From a virus, in IMG/VR virus record IMGVR_UViG_3300045581_000900, positions 32,001 to 96,000 of that record: 64,000 nt of DNA; one strand, written 5' to 3'. Below the pieces are notes generated by a model, which was not told the DNA's origin, did no database searches, and saw nothing but the letters and a program-made list of their open reading frames with translations. Positions 4,651-62,616 of this stretch are shown one piece after another. The translations under genes and the position numbers were made by a program. Position 1 is the stretch's first letter, and each line of letters begins with the position of its first letter.

Positions 4651-4697
4651 GATAGCTAAAAAAAAAACGCTTACGCGTGCGGAGCCGTCGCCTCCGC
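4651..4697 (-). terminator. Terminator with conserved T-run-AGCTATC tail
   Basis: Hairpin(s) followed by T10-AGCTATC on the minus strand. Confidence 0.6.
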
Positions 4698-4717: not shown

Positions 4718-5014
4718 TTAGAACCACCGGTTCAGGCAGTTCTCCAGCATTTTCGCGATTTCCGTGCCGTGGATCACACGTTCCCACGCGATGCCGTATT
4801 CGTGCATGTCGCCGCGAAGGTGTGCCGACTCGGCAATCGTCTCTTCGCACCGCACGCACGTACGAACACAATCCAGCGTCTCGGTGAAGATTCGCTTGAC
4901 TGTTTCGCTGGGGCCGAAATTGCGATGGCACTCCATTGCGTGCGTCTCCATCGCAAAGAGGTCGTTGGCGAAACGCTCTTCAGCCGACCGCTGAGTCTGG
5001 GTCATTGTCGTCAT
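4718..5014 (-). CDS. Hypothetical protein (single-gene cassette)
   Basis: Start reassigned to ATG 5014 with AAGGAGG RBS; lies between a promoter motif and a terminator. Confidence 0.65.
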   Translation of the reverse strand: MTTMTQTQRSAEERFANDLFAMETHAMECHRNFGPSETVKRIFTETLDCVRTCVRCEETIAESAHLRGDMHEYGIAWERVIHGTEIAKMLENCLNRWF

Positions 5015-5110
5015 TATTGCCCTCCTTAAGGCAAAGTCTTTTACCCAAAGACTCTGGGGAGTACTGCTAGCCGACGATACATATCGCCGGAATGCTAGGT
5101 TCCTCATATG

Positions 5111-5138
5111 ATATACCCTGTTTTTGTCGGTTATTTAG
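5111..5138 (-). promoter_or_regulatory. Phage promoter-like motif CTAAATAA-N13-GGTATAT
   Basis: One of six copies with an identical 13-nt spacer. Confidence 0.75.
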
Positions 5139-5147
5139 AGCCGCTCG

Positions 5148-5182
5148 AATAGCTAAAAAAAGCCCCCAATGGTCTGGGGGCT
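5148..5182 (-). terminator. Intrinsic terminator with T7-AGCTAT tail
   Basis: AGCCCCCA-loop-TGGGGGCT hairpin then T-run and AGCTATT. Confidence 0.8.
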
Positions 5183-5776
5183 TGAGTGAAATGTGGGCCG
5201 GTCGGGAAGGCTAGCTTCTTCCCGACCGGCCATCCCCCGTTAACACCTGATTGTCACACACAATCAGTTCACTGTGTTACGGGCTCGTTGTTTACCGGCC
5301 GTGACGGCAACACCACAACGTCGGTCGCCCTAGGGCTGTGGACAGGGGGTACAACGAGAAAACATGCTCGCACAGGATTGGGCCATGCGAGCGTGGCGTA
5401 AATTTAGGCGGCACCCAGATTTACAGTCTCCGAACAATCCCATCAGAGTTTCGGCAACCTACGATCTGGGCAGAAAACAGTTTGTTACTTTCAAAGAACT
5501 TACCGGCGTTTCGGTTTCCCGACGTCCCGGTATTCGGACTCGATTTCACAATAAGGGTGCTGCTGCCAACCACCCCGAGGCTGCCTGTGCCGACAAGACA
5601 CAGGCTTTTTGTCCAAGGGCTTCACCTACGAAAGCCTTTGTTCCGTTCGGACCAGTACCGCCTAAAGCGACGAGCCCCCAGAGCGACGACGGAACAAGCG
5701 TCGCTCCAAGGGCGTATTAAACGTATTCATAGTTAGGGAAAGGGCATCTTCGACCTCCTTTCAGGAGCCGCCTACG
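5183..5776 (-). ncRNA. Candidate large structured ncRNA (~600 nt)
   Basis: No minus-strand ORF; long-range stems 5403-5414/5655-5666 and 5281-5288/5670-5677; 14-bp hairpin 5196-5231; many local hairpins; GAAA tetraloops on the minus strand. Confidence 0.6.
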
Positions 5777-7300
5777 TCATTTCATCTTCAGGGCCAAGTC
5801 AAAGCCCCTGAGCATCCGAGACTGGTCAACGCAACCAATCGCCATGCTCAGTTTTTCCATCGCTTCCGGTCTCCAATTTGGAAGCAGATTGGGTACGGTC
5901 GGCTCGGGTCTTCCACTGGATGTCGCCCAGTTATGAAGCCAGAGCACTCGGGTTACAGACCGTAGTTCTGCGATCTCCCCGTAACGGTCGACCGCGTGGT
6001 GGTCGCCAAGCATGACGACAACACGAACCCTGTAACTACTCTCGCCGCGGCACACTTCCTCAAAAAGCCGTTCGGCCTCTCGGGGGCTTGTGGCCGCGGG
6101 CCTCCCGTTAAACCACGGAATGTACTCTTCGCTGGAGTCCACGCCGCCGTTAAAGTGGGGAAGCACCAGCACGTCGGAGCCTGCGACTCCGGCGTAGCCC
6201 GCCGCGTTGGCAAGGTCGCAGGCTGGCTGGGCCTGCTCCGCACAACTCGGCGAGATGTCGGGAAGAAAGAGGACCACCGGGCGGCCGGCGACCGTATCTT
6301 CCTTGAGTGCGTTGGGGAGCGGACGGCGGACAACCATCCGTTTAACCAACTTTGATGCACTCAAGACAGGTACGGGTCCCGTGGTTTCACCCACGGTCCC
6401 GCCATGCTCAACGAGCCGATTGATCAGTTCGGCCATCTGATTCCTCAACTTCTGGGAAACGTTTTGCAGGCGGCCAAGGCCCCGCGAAACTTGTTTCCGA
6501 GCGGTGAGGGAGACGCCGGCTGCTTGGGCTTTCGAGTTATACGAAAGCTTTTTGCGGGCCTGTCCCAATTTACGTTTTGCCGCTTTAACCGCGGCGTCTG
6601 TCCCCGGCTTTTTGCCGTTTTTGGCCGCGGCTTCCAGAGCGTCTTTCAACTCTCTCTTGGCCGCCTCAAGGGCTTTCTGCTGGGGGCTCGGCTGCGGTTT
6701 GGGCGGCGGGGTCGGAGCCGGCGGCGGGGGTGTAGGTTCAGCGTTAGCTTCGCCGTCACCGCCAGACGCAGGACCGGTCGTCTGCGTTTGGCTGGACGGT
6801 TGCGGCTGCCCCTGACCCGACTGCCCCTGCCCCTGCTGACCTTGGCCCTGTTGGCTTTGGCCAGACTGCCCTTGCCCCGGCTGGGCTTGGCTCTGTTGGC
6901 TTTGGCCAGACTGCCCTTGCCCCGGCTGGGCTTGGCTCTGTTGCCCCTGACCCTGCTGGTTCTGGCCCGGCTGGCCCTGCGGCGGTTGCTGCTTGGCCCG
7001 CTCCTGCTCGATAACTTCGAGCAGGTCCGCGTTCGGCCCGTATTCGCGGGCCCAGCGGTCAGCGAGGCGGCGAACATCCGGGACGATGGTGCCAGCCTTT
7101 TTGCACTCGTAGCACTTGCAGGCGTTTAACAGGCCGCCGTCCCGCAAGACGTTAGCCCGACGCCACCGGTTTACGCCGGTGACGAAAGCCCCAAGCCTCC
7201 CGAGAGCGGATTCGACGTCGCTGTCGTACACGCCGCCGAAAGCAATGCCGCGTTCAGCGGCAGAGAAACACTTCTGCAGTTGCCGCAATGTGAGCGACAT
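5777..7300 (-). CDS. vWA (MIDAS) domain protein with Gln/Gly/Pro-rich linker; MoxR partner
   Basis: FLPDISPS = DxSxS MIDAS motif; directly downstream of a MoxR-type AAA+ ATPase. Confidence 0.7.
   Translation of the reverse strand: MSLTLRQLQKCFSAAERGIAFGGVYDSDVESALGRLGAFVTGVNRWRRANVLRDGGLLNACKCYECKKAGTIVPDVRRLADRWAREYGPNADLLEVIEQERAKQQPPQGQPGQNQQGQGQQSQAQPGQGQSGQSQQSQAQPGQGQSGQSQQGQGQQGQGQSGQGQPQPSSQTQTTGPASGGDGEANAEPTPPPPAPTPPPKPQPSPQQKALEAAKRELKDALEAAAKNGKKPGTDAAVKAAKRKLGQARKKLSYNSKAQAAGVSLTARKQVSRGLGRLQNVSQKLRNQMAELINRLVEHGGTVGETTGPVPVLSASKLVKRMVVRRPLPNALKEDTVAGRPVVLFLPDISPSCAEQAQPACDLANAAGYAGVAGSDVLVLPHFNGGVDSSEEYIPWFNGRPAATSPREAERLFEEVCRGESSYRVRVVVMLGDHHAVDRYGEIAELRSVTRVLWLHNWATSSGRPEPTVPNLLPNWRPEAMEKLSMAIGCVDQSRMLRGFDLALKMK
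6848..6943. repeat. 45-bp tandem repeat (2+ copies) encoding QQSQAQPGQGQSGQS
   Basis: ctgttggctttggccagactgcccttgccccggctgggcttggct at 6848 and 6893. Confidence 0.9.
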
Positions 7301-7371
7301 TGCCAACTCCTTTCTCGTGGCGTTAATAAAAGGGGCCAGATTCCCGCCACAGAATCTGGCCCCTGTTTAAC

Positions 7372-8273: not shown

Positions 8274-8319
8274 GATAGCTAAAAAAAACGTCACCCGGGC
8301 CGAAGCCGGAGTGACGTTT
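8274..8319 (-). terminator. Intrinsic terminator with T8-AGCTATC tail
   Basis: AAACGTCAC...GTGACGTTT hairpin, T-run, AGCTATC. Confidence 0.8.
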
Positions 8320-8355: not shown

Positions 8356-8895
8356 TCAGTTTGCACTGGGCTCCCACTTCCGATGGACCGTTCCGACAGC
8401 CGGCTTGGGCTCGTCGGCCTTCTGCTTCAACTGCTCGGCGAAGGCTTTCACCTTTGCCTTTGCAGCCTCTGCCGCAGCCTCTTCTTCGGCCCGCTCTTTT
8501 TCCATCTTCACGCCGTCTTCGAAAATCTGCTCGGCGATGTACTGTGCGTCGACGGTTTCCATGAAGCTGCTGCAGACAGACTCAAGGAAGTTCATCGAGG
8601 TCGCCATCTCGTCCGCAGCCTTCTTGTGTTCCTCGTCGCCCGTCTCGGCAGCGATTCGCATGAGGGCCACGATCTCGTTCATCGTCGACGCCAGCGAATT
8701 GCCAACGATGCTGGCGATCCAGATAGTCATCGCACCGATCGCTCCGTTGCGGTGCTCCTCGTCCCACTCGGTCTTACCGAGCCGGTCGAGGCCCTTGCGG
8801 CTCGCCGCGTACGGGTGTGCGGACCACGGCAGGTCCGCCGCCTTCTTCCGAAAGTTTTCCAGCGTTTGCTGCGTGGCTGTATTGACCGATTTCAT
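8356..8895 (-). CDS. Hypothetical helical protein (single-gene cassette)
   Basis: Start reassigned to MKSVNT at 8895 (AGGAG RBS). Confidence 0.7.
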   Translation of the reverse strand: MKSVNTATQQTLENFRKKAADLPWSAHPYAASRKGLDRLGKTEWDEEHRNGAIGAMTIWIASIVGNSLASTMNEIVALMRIAAETGDEEHKKAADEMATSMNFLESVCSSFMETVDAQYIAEQIFEDGVKMEKERAEEEAAAEAAKAKVKAFAEQLKQKADEPKPAVGTVHRKWEPSAN

Positions 8896-8976
8896 GCCAA
8901 CTCCTACAGGTGGTGGAAATGGCCGCCGCAGACAAACGCCGCGGGGCGGTGCCGAACAGATAAACGGCACTACCTA

Positions 8977-42147: not shown

Positions 42148-42220
42148 CTGCCCGGGTAGGACTCGAACCTACAACCCCAGCATTAACAGTGCCGTGCTCT
42201 GCCAGTTGAGCTACCGGGCA
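42148..42220 (-). tRNA. trnN: tRNA-Asn(GTT), CCA not encoded
   Basis: TGCCCGG acceptor; AGCTCAACTGGCAGAGC D-arm; CGGCA-CTGTTAA-TGCTG anticodon arm; GTAGG-TTCGAGT-CCTAC T-arm. Confidence 0.95.
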
Positions 42221-51478: not shown

Positions 51479-52323
51479 GGCTGCACCTCGGCGTCGGCCA
51501 AGGCGATCTCGGAGCCGGTCGTGCTCTGGGCCTTGAGAGCCAGTTCATAGTTCTCGATCTGCCGGTGCACCCAGTCGTGATACATGCTCACACGGGTAAA
51601 CGCGGCCTCGTCGCCATAGGTGCCGTCGGTCTTCTTGTCGGCGGCGAGTAAAAACGAATTAATCCCAGCGAGCTTGTCGCCAATAAACATGCCGCCGCCT
51701 GAATCCCCCGGCGTAATCACAAACTCCAGCGGCATCCGACCTTTGCCGGCCGTGGGCGAGCAGAAGAGAACCGCGTCCGCACGACCGTCGATCACGTTGT
51801 GCCCGGCACGCTTGCGTTGGTCCGATGTCTCGGCGTTCGCTCCGCTGGAAAACGTGCCCTGAATCCCGTAGCCGGCAATCGTGATCGCCTTTCCCATCTC
51901 GTCCTGCTGGTCGTAGAGCGGCGTGTAAAAATCGAGCTTGAAGTCCGTGCCGCTGTAGCCTAGAGCAAGGTCGTGCCAGCCGACTTTTTCTGACACATAC
52001 TCGCGATGAATGATGACGGTGCTGAGCGGATATTCCGTGCCGTCGTCCTTGAGAATCTTTTGGCCGTACGTGCCCTCGACGACATGGGCCGCGGTGAGAA
52101 TCCAGTTGGGCCGGATAATCACCGCCGAGCCGTGCTGCTCGTGTTCTTTCTTCGGGCAGTCGGGGTTCGTGCACTTGATCTTGGCGATGATTTTCACCAC
52201 GCCCGGAAACTGCTGGCCGAACTCGACGTACTTGCTGTCGGGGGTATTCGGGTCTCGCGTGCCGGCCTGTACCGCCTCAGCACCAATAGCTAAAAAAAAC
52301 AGGAGTGATGTAAAGAGTTTCAT
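51475..52323 (-). CDS. Secreted trypsin-like (S1) serine protease
   Basis: Signal peptide; LTAAH, DLAL, GDSGG. Confidence 0.92.
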   Translation of the reverse strand: MKLFTSLLFFLAIGAEAVQAGTRDPNTPDSKYVEFGQQFPGVVKIIAKIKCTNPDCPKKEHEQHGSAVIIRPNWILTAAHVVEGTYGQKILKDDGTEYPLSTVIIHREYVSEKVGWHDLALGYSGTDFKLDFYTPLYDQQDEMGKAITIAGYGIQGTFSSGANAETSDQRKRAGHNVIDGRADAVLFCSPTAGKGRMPLEFVITPGDSGGGMFIGDKLAGINSFLLAADKKTDGTYGDEAAFTRVSMYHDWVHRQIENYELALKAQSTTGSEIALADAEVQP

Positions 52324-60665: not shown

Positions 60666-60704
60666 GATAGCTAAAAAAAGCCGCCTAGGTGTTAAGTAGG
60701 CGGC
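60666..60704 (-). terminator. Intrinsic terminator with T7-AGCTATC tail
   Basis: GCCGCCTA-loop-TAGGCGGC, T7, AGCTATC. Confidence 0.8.
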
Positions 60705-61363: not shown

Positions 61364-61627
61364 GATAGCTAAAAAAAGGGGCGAGTTGTTGAGTTAGGCA
61401 GGCACTACAGCCTGTTTCTCCTCTCACTCACTCCCCTTTACTGCGGTTGACGTACGCAGCTTTACGGGCAATACCCTATGGCTTTCGCCCAAGGGTTCGG
61501 GACCACCTTGCTTTTTTGGCCGTCTTACGGGCTGTCCATCGGATATTACGTCCGGGGACCAACTGAGGGATAAGCAGAACCTCGCCAGAAACCAAGAAAC
61601 ATTAAACCAACATTATCGGGTACAGCA
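61364..61627 (-). ncRNA. Candidate structured RNA (~250 nt) ending in a terminator with T7-AGCTATC tail
   Basis: ORF-free; GGC-GAAA-GCC and other hairpins; long terminal stem ~61375-61439. Confidence 0.4.
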
Positions 61628-62586: not shown

Positions 62587-62616
62587 GATAGCTAAAAAAA
62601 AAGCCCCGAAGGGCTT
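62587..62616 (-). terminator. Intrinsic terminator with T9-AGCTATC tail
   Basis: AAGCCC-TTCG-GGGCTT, T-run, AGCTATC. Confidence 0.8.

Follow-up and report, generated by a model that had tools for sequence, protein, structure and literature searches.

The window analysed here is a 64-kb stretch of DNA from a 112-kb IMG/VR virus record whose completeness is estimated at 55%. Near one end of the window lies a series of genes transcribed in the minus direction, beginning with an AAA_5 ATPase of the NorQ/MoxR type (274 aa, nt. 8196-7372) and a putative vWA/MIDAS protein carrying a DxSxS motif (509 aa, nt. 7306-5777). These are followed by a gap, a 129-aa gene (nt. 5107-4718), a 436-aa core gene (nt. 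4628-3318), and a 236-aa gene (nt. 3170-2460), beyond which the minus-strand series continues with a tail-fibre-like gene. The first-pass annotation had described the gap as gene-free, and we likewise noted no minus-strand ORF of more than 50 aa between nt. 5776 and 5108. Occupying this gap is a predicted structured RNA, which runs on the minus strand from just past the vWA stop codon to the T-run of a terminator (nt. 5776-5155, ~590–620 nt; alignments A1, A3, and A13; models R1 and R2). RNA position 1 was set at window position 5779.

The whole region folds more stably than its shuffles (z −5.3), and the RNA body stripped of its terminators does so as well (z −3.4), with none of 100 shuffles equally stable. 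The plus strand of the region also folds well (z −4.5), so folding of a single sequence cannot choose the strand; the minus strand was chosen given the orientation of the surrounding genes, which are all on that strand, the G-U pairs, and the terminator. At the 3′ end, the perfect 14-bp, GC-rich hairpin reported at first is present (nt. 5231-5196, minus), and in four homologues (L011, L013, L017, and L018) a T-run directly follows its equivalent, which thus acts as the terminator. In the window phage, a second GC-rich hairpin (nt. 5183-5160) runs directly into TTTTTTT, forming an intrinsic terminator (nt. 5155-5183, minus) at the end of the region, where one had been expected.

A junction/promoter-like motif, TTTTAGCTAT, occurs seven times in the 64-kb window, always on the minus strand, versus 0.05 copies expected (nt. 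4652-4661, 5149-5158, 8275-8284, 52286-52295, 60667-60676, 61365-61374, and 62588-62597). The copy starting at nt. 8284 stands ahead of the AAA gene and is the probable start of a transcription unit, that at nt. 5158 lies just past the gap terminator, and that at nt. 4661 precedes the 436-aa gene; the motif count over the 64-kb window placed no copy between the vWA gene and the RNA. In relatives, the motif is followed by TATAAT 6 nt ahead of the ATG of the next gene, a spacing that implies a leaderless mRNA, and the combination looks like a phage promoter giving leaderless mRNAs. Given that the promoter-like motif is found before the AAA gene and again past the terminator, yet never between the vWA gene and the RNA, and that the first helix of the RNA (P1, see below) starts no more than 5 nt from the stop codon in the homologues, we infer that promoter motif, AAA gene, vWA gene, RNA, and terminator constitute one unit, in which the RNA would be the 3′ end of the AAA-vWA mRNA.

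The neighbouring proteins and the AAA-vWA junction

The AAA protein matched Pfam AAA_5 (E 1.5e-12), and its best solved relative was NorQ (E 7.5e-9 over residues 32-258). Metagenomic protein collections contain upwards of 100 relatives of the vWA protein, none with a recorded Pfam domain, and the protein itself gave no match to Pfam, VWA included. It comprises four parts, namely an N-terminal domain (~110 residues, confidently predicted), a Q/G/P-rich linker predicted to be disordered (pLDDT <50), a conserved, basic helical region rich in Arg and Lys, and a putative C-terminal vWA domain. An Atlas search with the N-terminal domain returned sub-threshold leads only (DUF2201_N and CobT). The best fold matches of the vWA protein were the Rea1/MDN1 MIDAS and NorD vWA domains, which were weak (E 0.007–0.03, low TM-scores), while the D-x-S-x-S motif is invariant in 35 vWA homologues and an HExxH motif is absent. 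A recognisable RNA-binding domain was found in neither protein by Pfam and fold searches; the vWA protein could bind RNA via its Arg/Lys-rich helical region. The linker (residues ~110–200; nt. 6450-7050, minus) corresponds to a long low-complexity stretch with a strong AT-skew anomaly.

A further structured element lies at the AAA-vWA junction, just before the vWA ribosome-binding site (nt. 7315-7364, minus), and consists of a 14-bp hairpin with the loop UGUGGCG, followed by a CGCCAC box. In six relatives, this hairpin has a covarying stem of 13–15 bp and an invariant UGUGGCG loop, with a CGCCAC or CCGCCA box, complementary to the loop, ~10 nt past the hairpin. The element is present in the window and in L011, L012, L014, L017, and L018, and absent from L013 and L015. 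A possible function is that of a pseudoknot operator or attenuator controlling the AAA:vWA ratio.

Homologues, coding potential, and fold of the RNA

Using scans with the vWA alignment, the downstream core protein, and RNA patterns, we gathered nine distinct copies of the RNA region, comprising that of the window, seven from IMG/VR phage contigs (L011, L012, L013, L015, L017, L018, and L025), and one from a metagenome contig (L022). All nine share the same gene order, with the AAA and vWA genes followed by an ORF-free gap of 580–770 nt, a 410–450-aa gene, and a ~240-aa gene. The vWA proteins of the homologues are 38–66% identical to that of the window, and their gaps contain common conserved islands separated by variable stretches. 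Searches of GenBank phages with the region (blastn) and the vWA protein (tblastn) gave no match, no cultured relative being known, a metagenome scan yielded two loci only, and a protein scan of prokaryote genome contigs found none. Among 185,579 prokaryote genomes, the RNA pattern matched 15 times, in GC-rich genomes; all 15 failed both R1 and R2 and are thus chance matches. A 17-mer scan returned three matches outside the known contig, which showed no further similarity by blastn and failed R1 and R2, and a second RNA-pattern scan of IMG/VR recovered family contigs only, plus four matches failing R1.

The closest relative of the window, L011 (73% nucleotide identity), is informative as to coding potential. 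Indels between the two are not multiples of three, and the 143-codon open stretch on the plus strand of the window falls in three frames in L011. Neither of the plus-strand ORFs at nt. 5338-5736 and 5364-5720 is conserved; the latter had been named at the outset as the reading frame whose translation would speak against an RNA. Apart from the mini-ORF described below, no conserved ORF was found among the homologues on either strand of the region. Given the indels not in threes and the broken and shifted frames in the closest relative, we regard the region as non-coding, the mini-ORF apart.

Comparison with catalogued RNAs returned little. At the gathering score, Rfam 15 identified only a tRNA (nt. 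42148-42220) in the 64-kb window and nothing in the region itself; a relaxed Rfam search of nt. 4900-6000 gave a best E of 0.73 (21 bits vs. a 49-bit cut-off), on the terminator hairpins. The Rfam families covered by this comparison include ROOL, GOLLD, OLE, RNase P, tmRNA, group I and II introns, pRNA, and riboswitches. ARAGORN identified no tRNA or tmRNA gene at nt. 5000-5900, and at the first reading no tmRNA, RNase P, or group II domain V signature had been seen. With nine divergent homologues, strong covariation, and no Rfam match, the comparative evidence shows that nt. 5776-5155 (minus) specify a previously uncatalogued structured non-coding RNA of ~590–620 nt, as the first-pass annotation had proposed. 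Covariation across the nine homologues backs ~15 helices, although these sequences are few and related, two of the alignments are model-fitted, and the independent changes are fewer than the cell counts given below suggest.

The outermost feature, P1, is a long-range helix in which the first bases past the vWA stop codon (UAGGCGGC, nt. 5767-5774, minus, 2 nt past the stop) pair with a segment ~360 nt downstream (GCCGCCUA, nt. 5405-5412, minus). Inside P1 lie a ribosome-binding site with the mini-ORF, a hairpin (H1) with a pseudoknot, four core hairpins, and the long hairpin Pe, and past it lie Pf, a three-way-junction domain, and a further hairpin, ahead of the terminator. When the 22 nt before the ribosome-binding site were compared with every 40-nt window elsewhere in the RNA, the single best partner in seven of the nine sequences proved to be the homologous window immediately 3′ of Pe. 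The paired sequences vary among the homologues, at 8–13 bp each, and in L011 and L013 the stop codon itself is inside the helix. P1 is also contained in the minimum-energy fold of the window RNA.

The 3′ strand of P1 falls within one arm (nt. 5414-5403) of a 12-bp stem to which attention had first been drawn, the other arm being TTTAGGCGGTAC (nt. 5655-5666, minus). This stem is present as described, with one G-U pair and enclosing 240 nt, but it is not conserved: the internal arm (nt. 5666-5655) is deleted in L011, and in no sequence but those of the window and L018 does the 3′ arm pair best with it. The pairing of the 3′ arm that is conserved and covaries is with the segment directly following the vWA stop codon, and TTTAGGCGGTAC is an alternative partner for the P1 3′ strand that is not conserved. 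The idea that the RNA switches, as a conserved feature, from one of these two 5′ arms to the other was considered and rejected as unsupported, the internal arm being the best partner in those two sequences only. Right after the P1 3′ strand, we also noted a box, ACGCCACG, which resembles the CGCCAC/CCGCCA box of the AAA-vWA junction.

Within P1, the first element is an extended Shine-Dalgarno site, GAAAGGAGG (nt. 5754-5762, minus), the sole copy of this sequence and the strongest such site in the 64-kb window, where most genes have weak ones. Two GAAA tetraloops had been proposed for the region and both loops exist; however, one of these (CTCCT-GAAA-GGAG) is the Shine-Dalgarno site of the mini-ORF and not a plain tetraloop hairpin. 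The mini-ORF itself (ATG CCC TTT CCC TAA, encoding MPFP-stop; nt. 5733-5747, minus) has a counterpart in all nine homologues, each with a Shine-Dalgarno-like site, a start codon 5–7 nt further on, 3–5 sense codons, and a stop. In the clade of the window, its changes are synonymous only (CCC/CCG/CCA and CCC/CCU), and distant members have Trp where the window has Phe, a pattern which, in this small sample, suggests that translation of the mini-ORF or its peptide matters.

H1 (nt. 5675-5712, minus) is a 14-bp hairpin with compensatory changes in 8 of its 14 pairs, and its loop (nt. 5697-5689) forms the 5′ strand of a pseudoknot with ACGGAACAA (nt. 5638-5646, minus). When six sequences were aligned with MAFFT, without fitting to a model, 85% of the cells of H1 and the pseudoknot were paired and 15 of 23 pairs showed compensatory changes, a count reached by none of 500 shuffles and compared with 2–7 in slid controls. 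The pseudoknot comprises nine pairs (92.6% paired), seven of them with compensatory changes. The 12 nt before the first core hairpin, Pa, pair best with the H1 loop in eight of nine sequences, and none of 392–507 downstream windows matches the pairing of the H1 loop. An outer stem of 8 bp suggested earlier (GGGCTCGT/ACGAGCCC, nt. 5677-5670/5288-5281) does occur in the window; it conflicts, however, with the covarying helices, overlapping H1 as well as P3a and P3c (see below), and has no counterpart in L011.

The core (nt. 5500-5639, minus; model R1) is formed by the hairpins Pa, Pb (loop CUUGUCGG), Pc, and Pd. Pd displays an invariant 4x4 internal loop (GACG/AACG) and ends in a GNRA loop in some members and in an extended hairpin in others, and a further helix, outside Pd, differs in sequence among all nine homologues (read by eye, uncounted). 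Model R1 scores 84–130 bits in family members only. In the R1 alignment, 90% of cells are paired and 17 of 28 pairs show compensatory changes (shuffle mean 8.9, none of 500 as high; slid controls 3–7). Downstream of the core, the long hairpin Pe (nt. 5414-5470, minus) contains a conserved GUAG/GUAAA internal loop, and the hairpin Pf (nt. 5366-5392, minus) has a covarying stem; for these two, RNAalifold on a plain MAFFT alignment predicted 22 pairs, with compensatory changes in 12.

The 3′ domain (nt. 5233-5366, minus) is built around P3a (CUCGUUGU/ACAACGAG), which closes a junction holding a variable hairpin and P3b (7-nt loop), with the hairpin P3c (GUGAA bulge) following. Model R2, which covers this domain, scores 63–115 bits in eight members; 91% of cells are paired and compensatory changes occur in 16 of 28 pairs, with no shuffle among 500 as high and slid controls of 2–5. 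In L018, the closing helix P3a is swapped for another complementary pair of strands (read by eye).

Distribution of the cassette and known systems compared

All nine copies of the RNA sit directly behind a NorQ/MoxR AAA+ gene and a vWA/MIDAS gene. The 436-aa protein downstream is encoded by a core gene, found at 43 loci (L043-L085; 53–88% identity) in a clade of ~200-kb uncultured phages; it displays invariant Cys pairs (CxxC twice) and has no match in Pfam, PHROG, or a PDB sequence search. Among these 43 loci, the distribution of the RNA (by nhmmer, R1, and R2) coincides exactly with that of the AAA and vWA genes. The RNA follows the vWA homologue at every examined locus where the sequence extends far enough downstream, and ~30 related loci that lack the AAA and vWA genes beside the same core gene also lack the RNA, the genes of 329-aa and 436-aa type being either adjacent there or split by other inserts. 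Five relatives that are 97–100% complete have no vWA gene anywhere, and two independent RNA-pattern scans of IMG/VR, whose matches were confined to cassette-bearing contigs apart from chance ones failing the models, and one core-gene scan did not find the RNA apart from the gene pair.

The cassette-bearing phages form one subclade and are each other's closest relatives, with the neighbouring 329-aa gene 77–97% identical to that of the window in cassette-bearers vs. 59–71% in others. The distribution is best read as a single acquisition of a ~3.9-kb block (the 204-aa gene, AAA, vWA, and the RNA) followed by vertical inheritance, and the RNA is probably the terminal component of an accessory cassette that entered between two core structural genes of uncultured ~200-kb phages. 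Given this apparent single gain in one subclade, the co-occurrence of the RNA and the gene pair is not independent evidence of a functional link. The RNA has been kept, nonetheless, beside proteins which have diverged to 38% identity. The link to the MoxR/vWA pair envisaged in the first-pass annotation thus holds for location, with the RNA found only where both genes are, and its functional side stays conjectural. The 204-aa gene (nt. 8356-8970, minus) lies upstream of AAA in its own unit and encodes a helical, acidic/lysine-rich protein with no family match, present in cassette-bearing phages only; the protein is a candidate fourth member of the island.

Several known systems share features with this locus. 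ROOL and GOLLD are large, ornate RNAs, often borne by phages or prophages, for which cryo-EM structures are available (bioRxiv 10.1101/2024.12.08.627333). The present RNA resembles them as a phage-borne, ORF-free, multi-domain RNA of ~600 nt recognised by covariation, but it matches no Rfam model, lacks their tRNA-gene context (the only tRNA of the window is 37 kb off), and is fixed behind a protein-gene pair, with an internal ribosome-binding site and mini-ORF.

On the protein side, the studied MoxR-vWA pairs are NorQ/NorD, CbbQ/CbbO, RavA/ViaA, midasin/Rea1, and a tail-assembly pair of an archaeal virus, all acting on protein clients and not RNA, with midasin acting on a pre-ribosomal particle (PMC7159879). 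The present pair is similar in that its AAA_5 protein is closest to NorQ and its partner has a putative C-terminal MIDAS/vWA domain with weak Rea1/NorD fold matches. It differs in having an RNA beside it; midasin alone among those pairs handles an RNA-protein particle, and does so through protein contacts, and our search of the literature found no account of a MoxR-vWA pair that comes with its own RNA gene. In Ro60/Rsr and Y RNA, a protein containing a vWA domain is matched with a small RNA, and a phage example has been described (PMC12135203). There, a protein with a C-terminal vWA domain, putative in the present case, is likewise encoded beside a structured RNA; however, the vWA protein of the window has no TROVE domain by Pfam, its TROVE/Ro60 fold matches are weak (E 0.07–0.35), and Y RNAs are ~100 nt with another architecture.

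A retron ncRNA (msr/msd) was also considered and rejected, as there is no reverse transcriptase in the record of the window or in four cassette-bearing records. RVT_1 was absent from the former and from those four genomes (two 100% complete, two partial), the small proteins of the cassette are not RT-like, and the cassette has one large RNA, not repeated small units. The pRNA of phi29 (~174 nt) is a structured phage RNA which works with an ATPase in virion assembly. The present RNA is likewise a structured phage RNA, in a cassette that also sits among structural genes, but it has no Rfam match, its neighbouring ATPase belongs to another family, and no tie to packaging was seen.

Possible roles of the RNA

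New structured RNAs of more than ~400 nt are rare, and those known are ribozymes, ribonucleoprotein scaffolds, or large RNA-only assemblies. The reading we place first, at a little under an even chance and from genomic evidence, is that the RNA is a partner or client of the AAA+/vWA pair in a ribonucleoprotein. As the RNA abuts the vWA stop codon, newly made vWA protein could load in cis onto the RNA encoded immediately after it. Remodelling or release of the vWA-RNA complex would then fall to the AAA+ ring, in the way that MoxR-vWA pairs treat protein clients, and a ribosome parked at the mini-ORF might keep P1 open during synthesis or protect the 5′ end of the RNA. The fixed MoxR-vWA neighbours provide a testable handle on the function of the RNA.

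A more far-reaching reading, which we think unlikely, is that of an AAA+/MIDAS machine centred on RNA, where a NorQ/NorD-like pair would load and remodel the ~600-nt RNA as its dedicated client, scaffold, or catalytic core. Such a machine would be a miniature phage analogue of midasin on its ribonucleoprotein, with the super-strong Shine-Dalgarno site and mini-ORF tying the RNA to host ribosomes. If true, the cassette would represent the first MoxR-vWA system to include an RNA, and the RNA itself a new class among large functional RNAs.

Alternatively, the RNA may act autonomously in trans, as a large ribozyme, as an assembly scaffold, or as a sponge or decoy that draws off a host factor or a defence system, only sharing a cassette and transcript with the gene pair. 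In its size, its pseudoknot, the invariant internal loops, and the several domains of its fold, it does resemble large RNAs that are independent of their neighbours; only one gain event underlies its association with the proteins, and the cassette sits among neck and tail genes. We nonetheless consider independence from the pair somewhat improbable, though a serious contender, given that the two RNA-pattern scans and the core-gene scan never placed the RNA apart from the pair, and that it follows immediately on the vWA stop codon and lacks a separate promoter motif.

The RNA might instead be a cis-acting 3′ UTR that governs how stable the AAA-vWA mRNA is or how it is translated. P1, whose 5′ strand overlaps or abuts the stop codon, would sense terminating ribosomes, and the Shine-Dalgarno site and mini-ORF would hold a shielding ribosome, a scheme to which we give only a modest chance in whole and in this detail. 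In its favour are the Shine-Dalgarno site, unique in the window, the conservation of the mini-ORF, and the second conserved RNA element at the vWA ribosome-binding site. However, ~15 conserved helices, a pseudoknot, and invariant loops over ~550 nt far exceed what known stabilisers or 3′ UTR elements need, and the core and 3′ domain have no evident tie to translation. Whichever role applies, the mini-ORF and the stop-codon helix P1 are a candidate for studying how translation shapes RNA folding.

Very improbable is a long leader or riboswitch for the genes downstream (the 129-aa gene here, the ~410–450-aa core gene in relatives). The RNA does lie upstream of these genes on the same strand, but the terminator and then a promoter-like motif stand in between, the TATAAT 6 nt before the core-gene ATG implies a leaderless mRNA, and in relatives lacking the cassette, the same core gene is expressed with no such RNA present. 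That there is no RNA gene at all, only a decayed or unusual coding region or chance structure, is scarcely credible in spite of plus-strand frames of up to 143 codons in the window and a plus strand that folds well too, given the frames broken and shifted between close relatives, the indels not in threes, the many compensatory changes, and the lack of Pfam or PHROG matches.

Among the downstream genes, the 129-aa gene (nt. 4718-5107) is absent from this position in the other cassette-bearing phages, and its homologues occur in differing neighbourhoods in other ~200-kb phages (L005 and L006). It resembles a small mobile cassette in its own right, equipped with a promoter motif.
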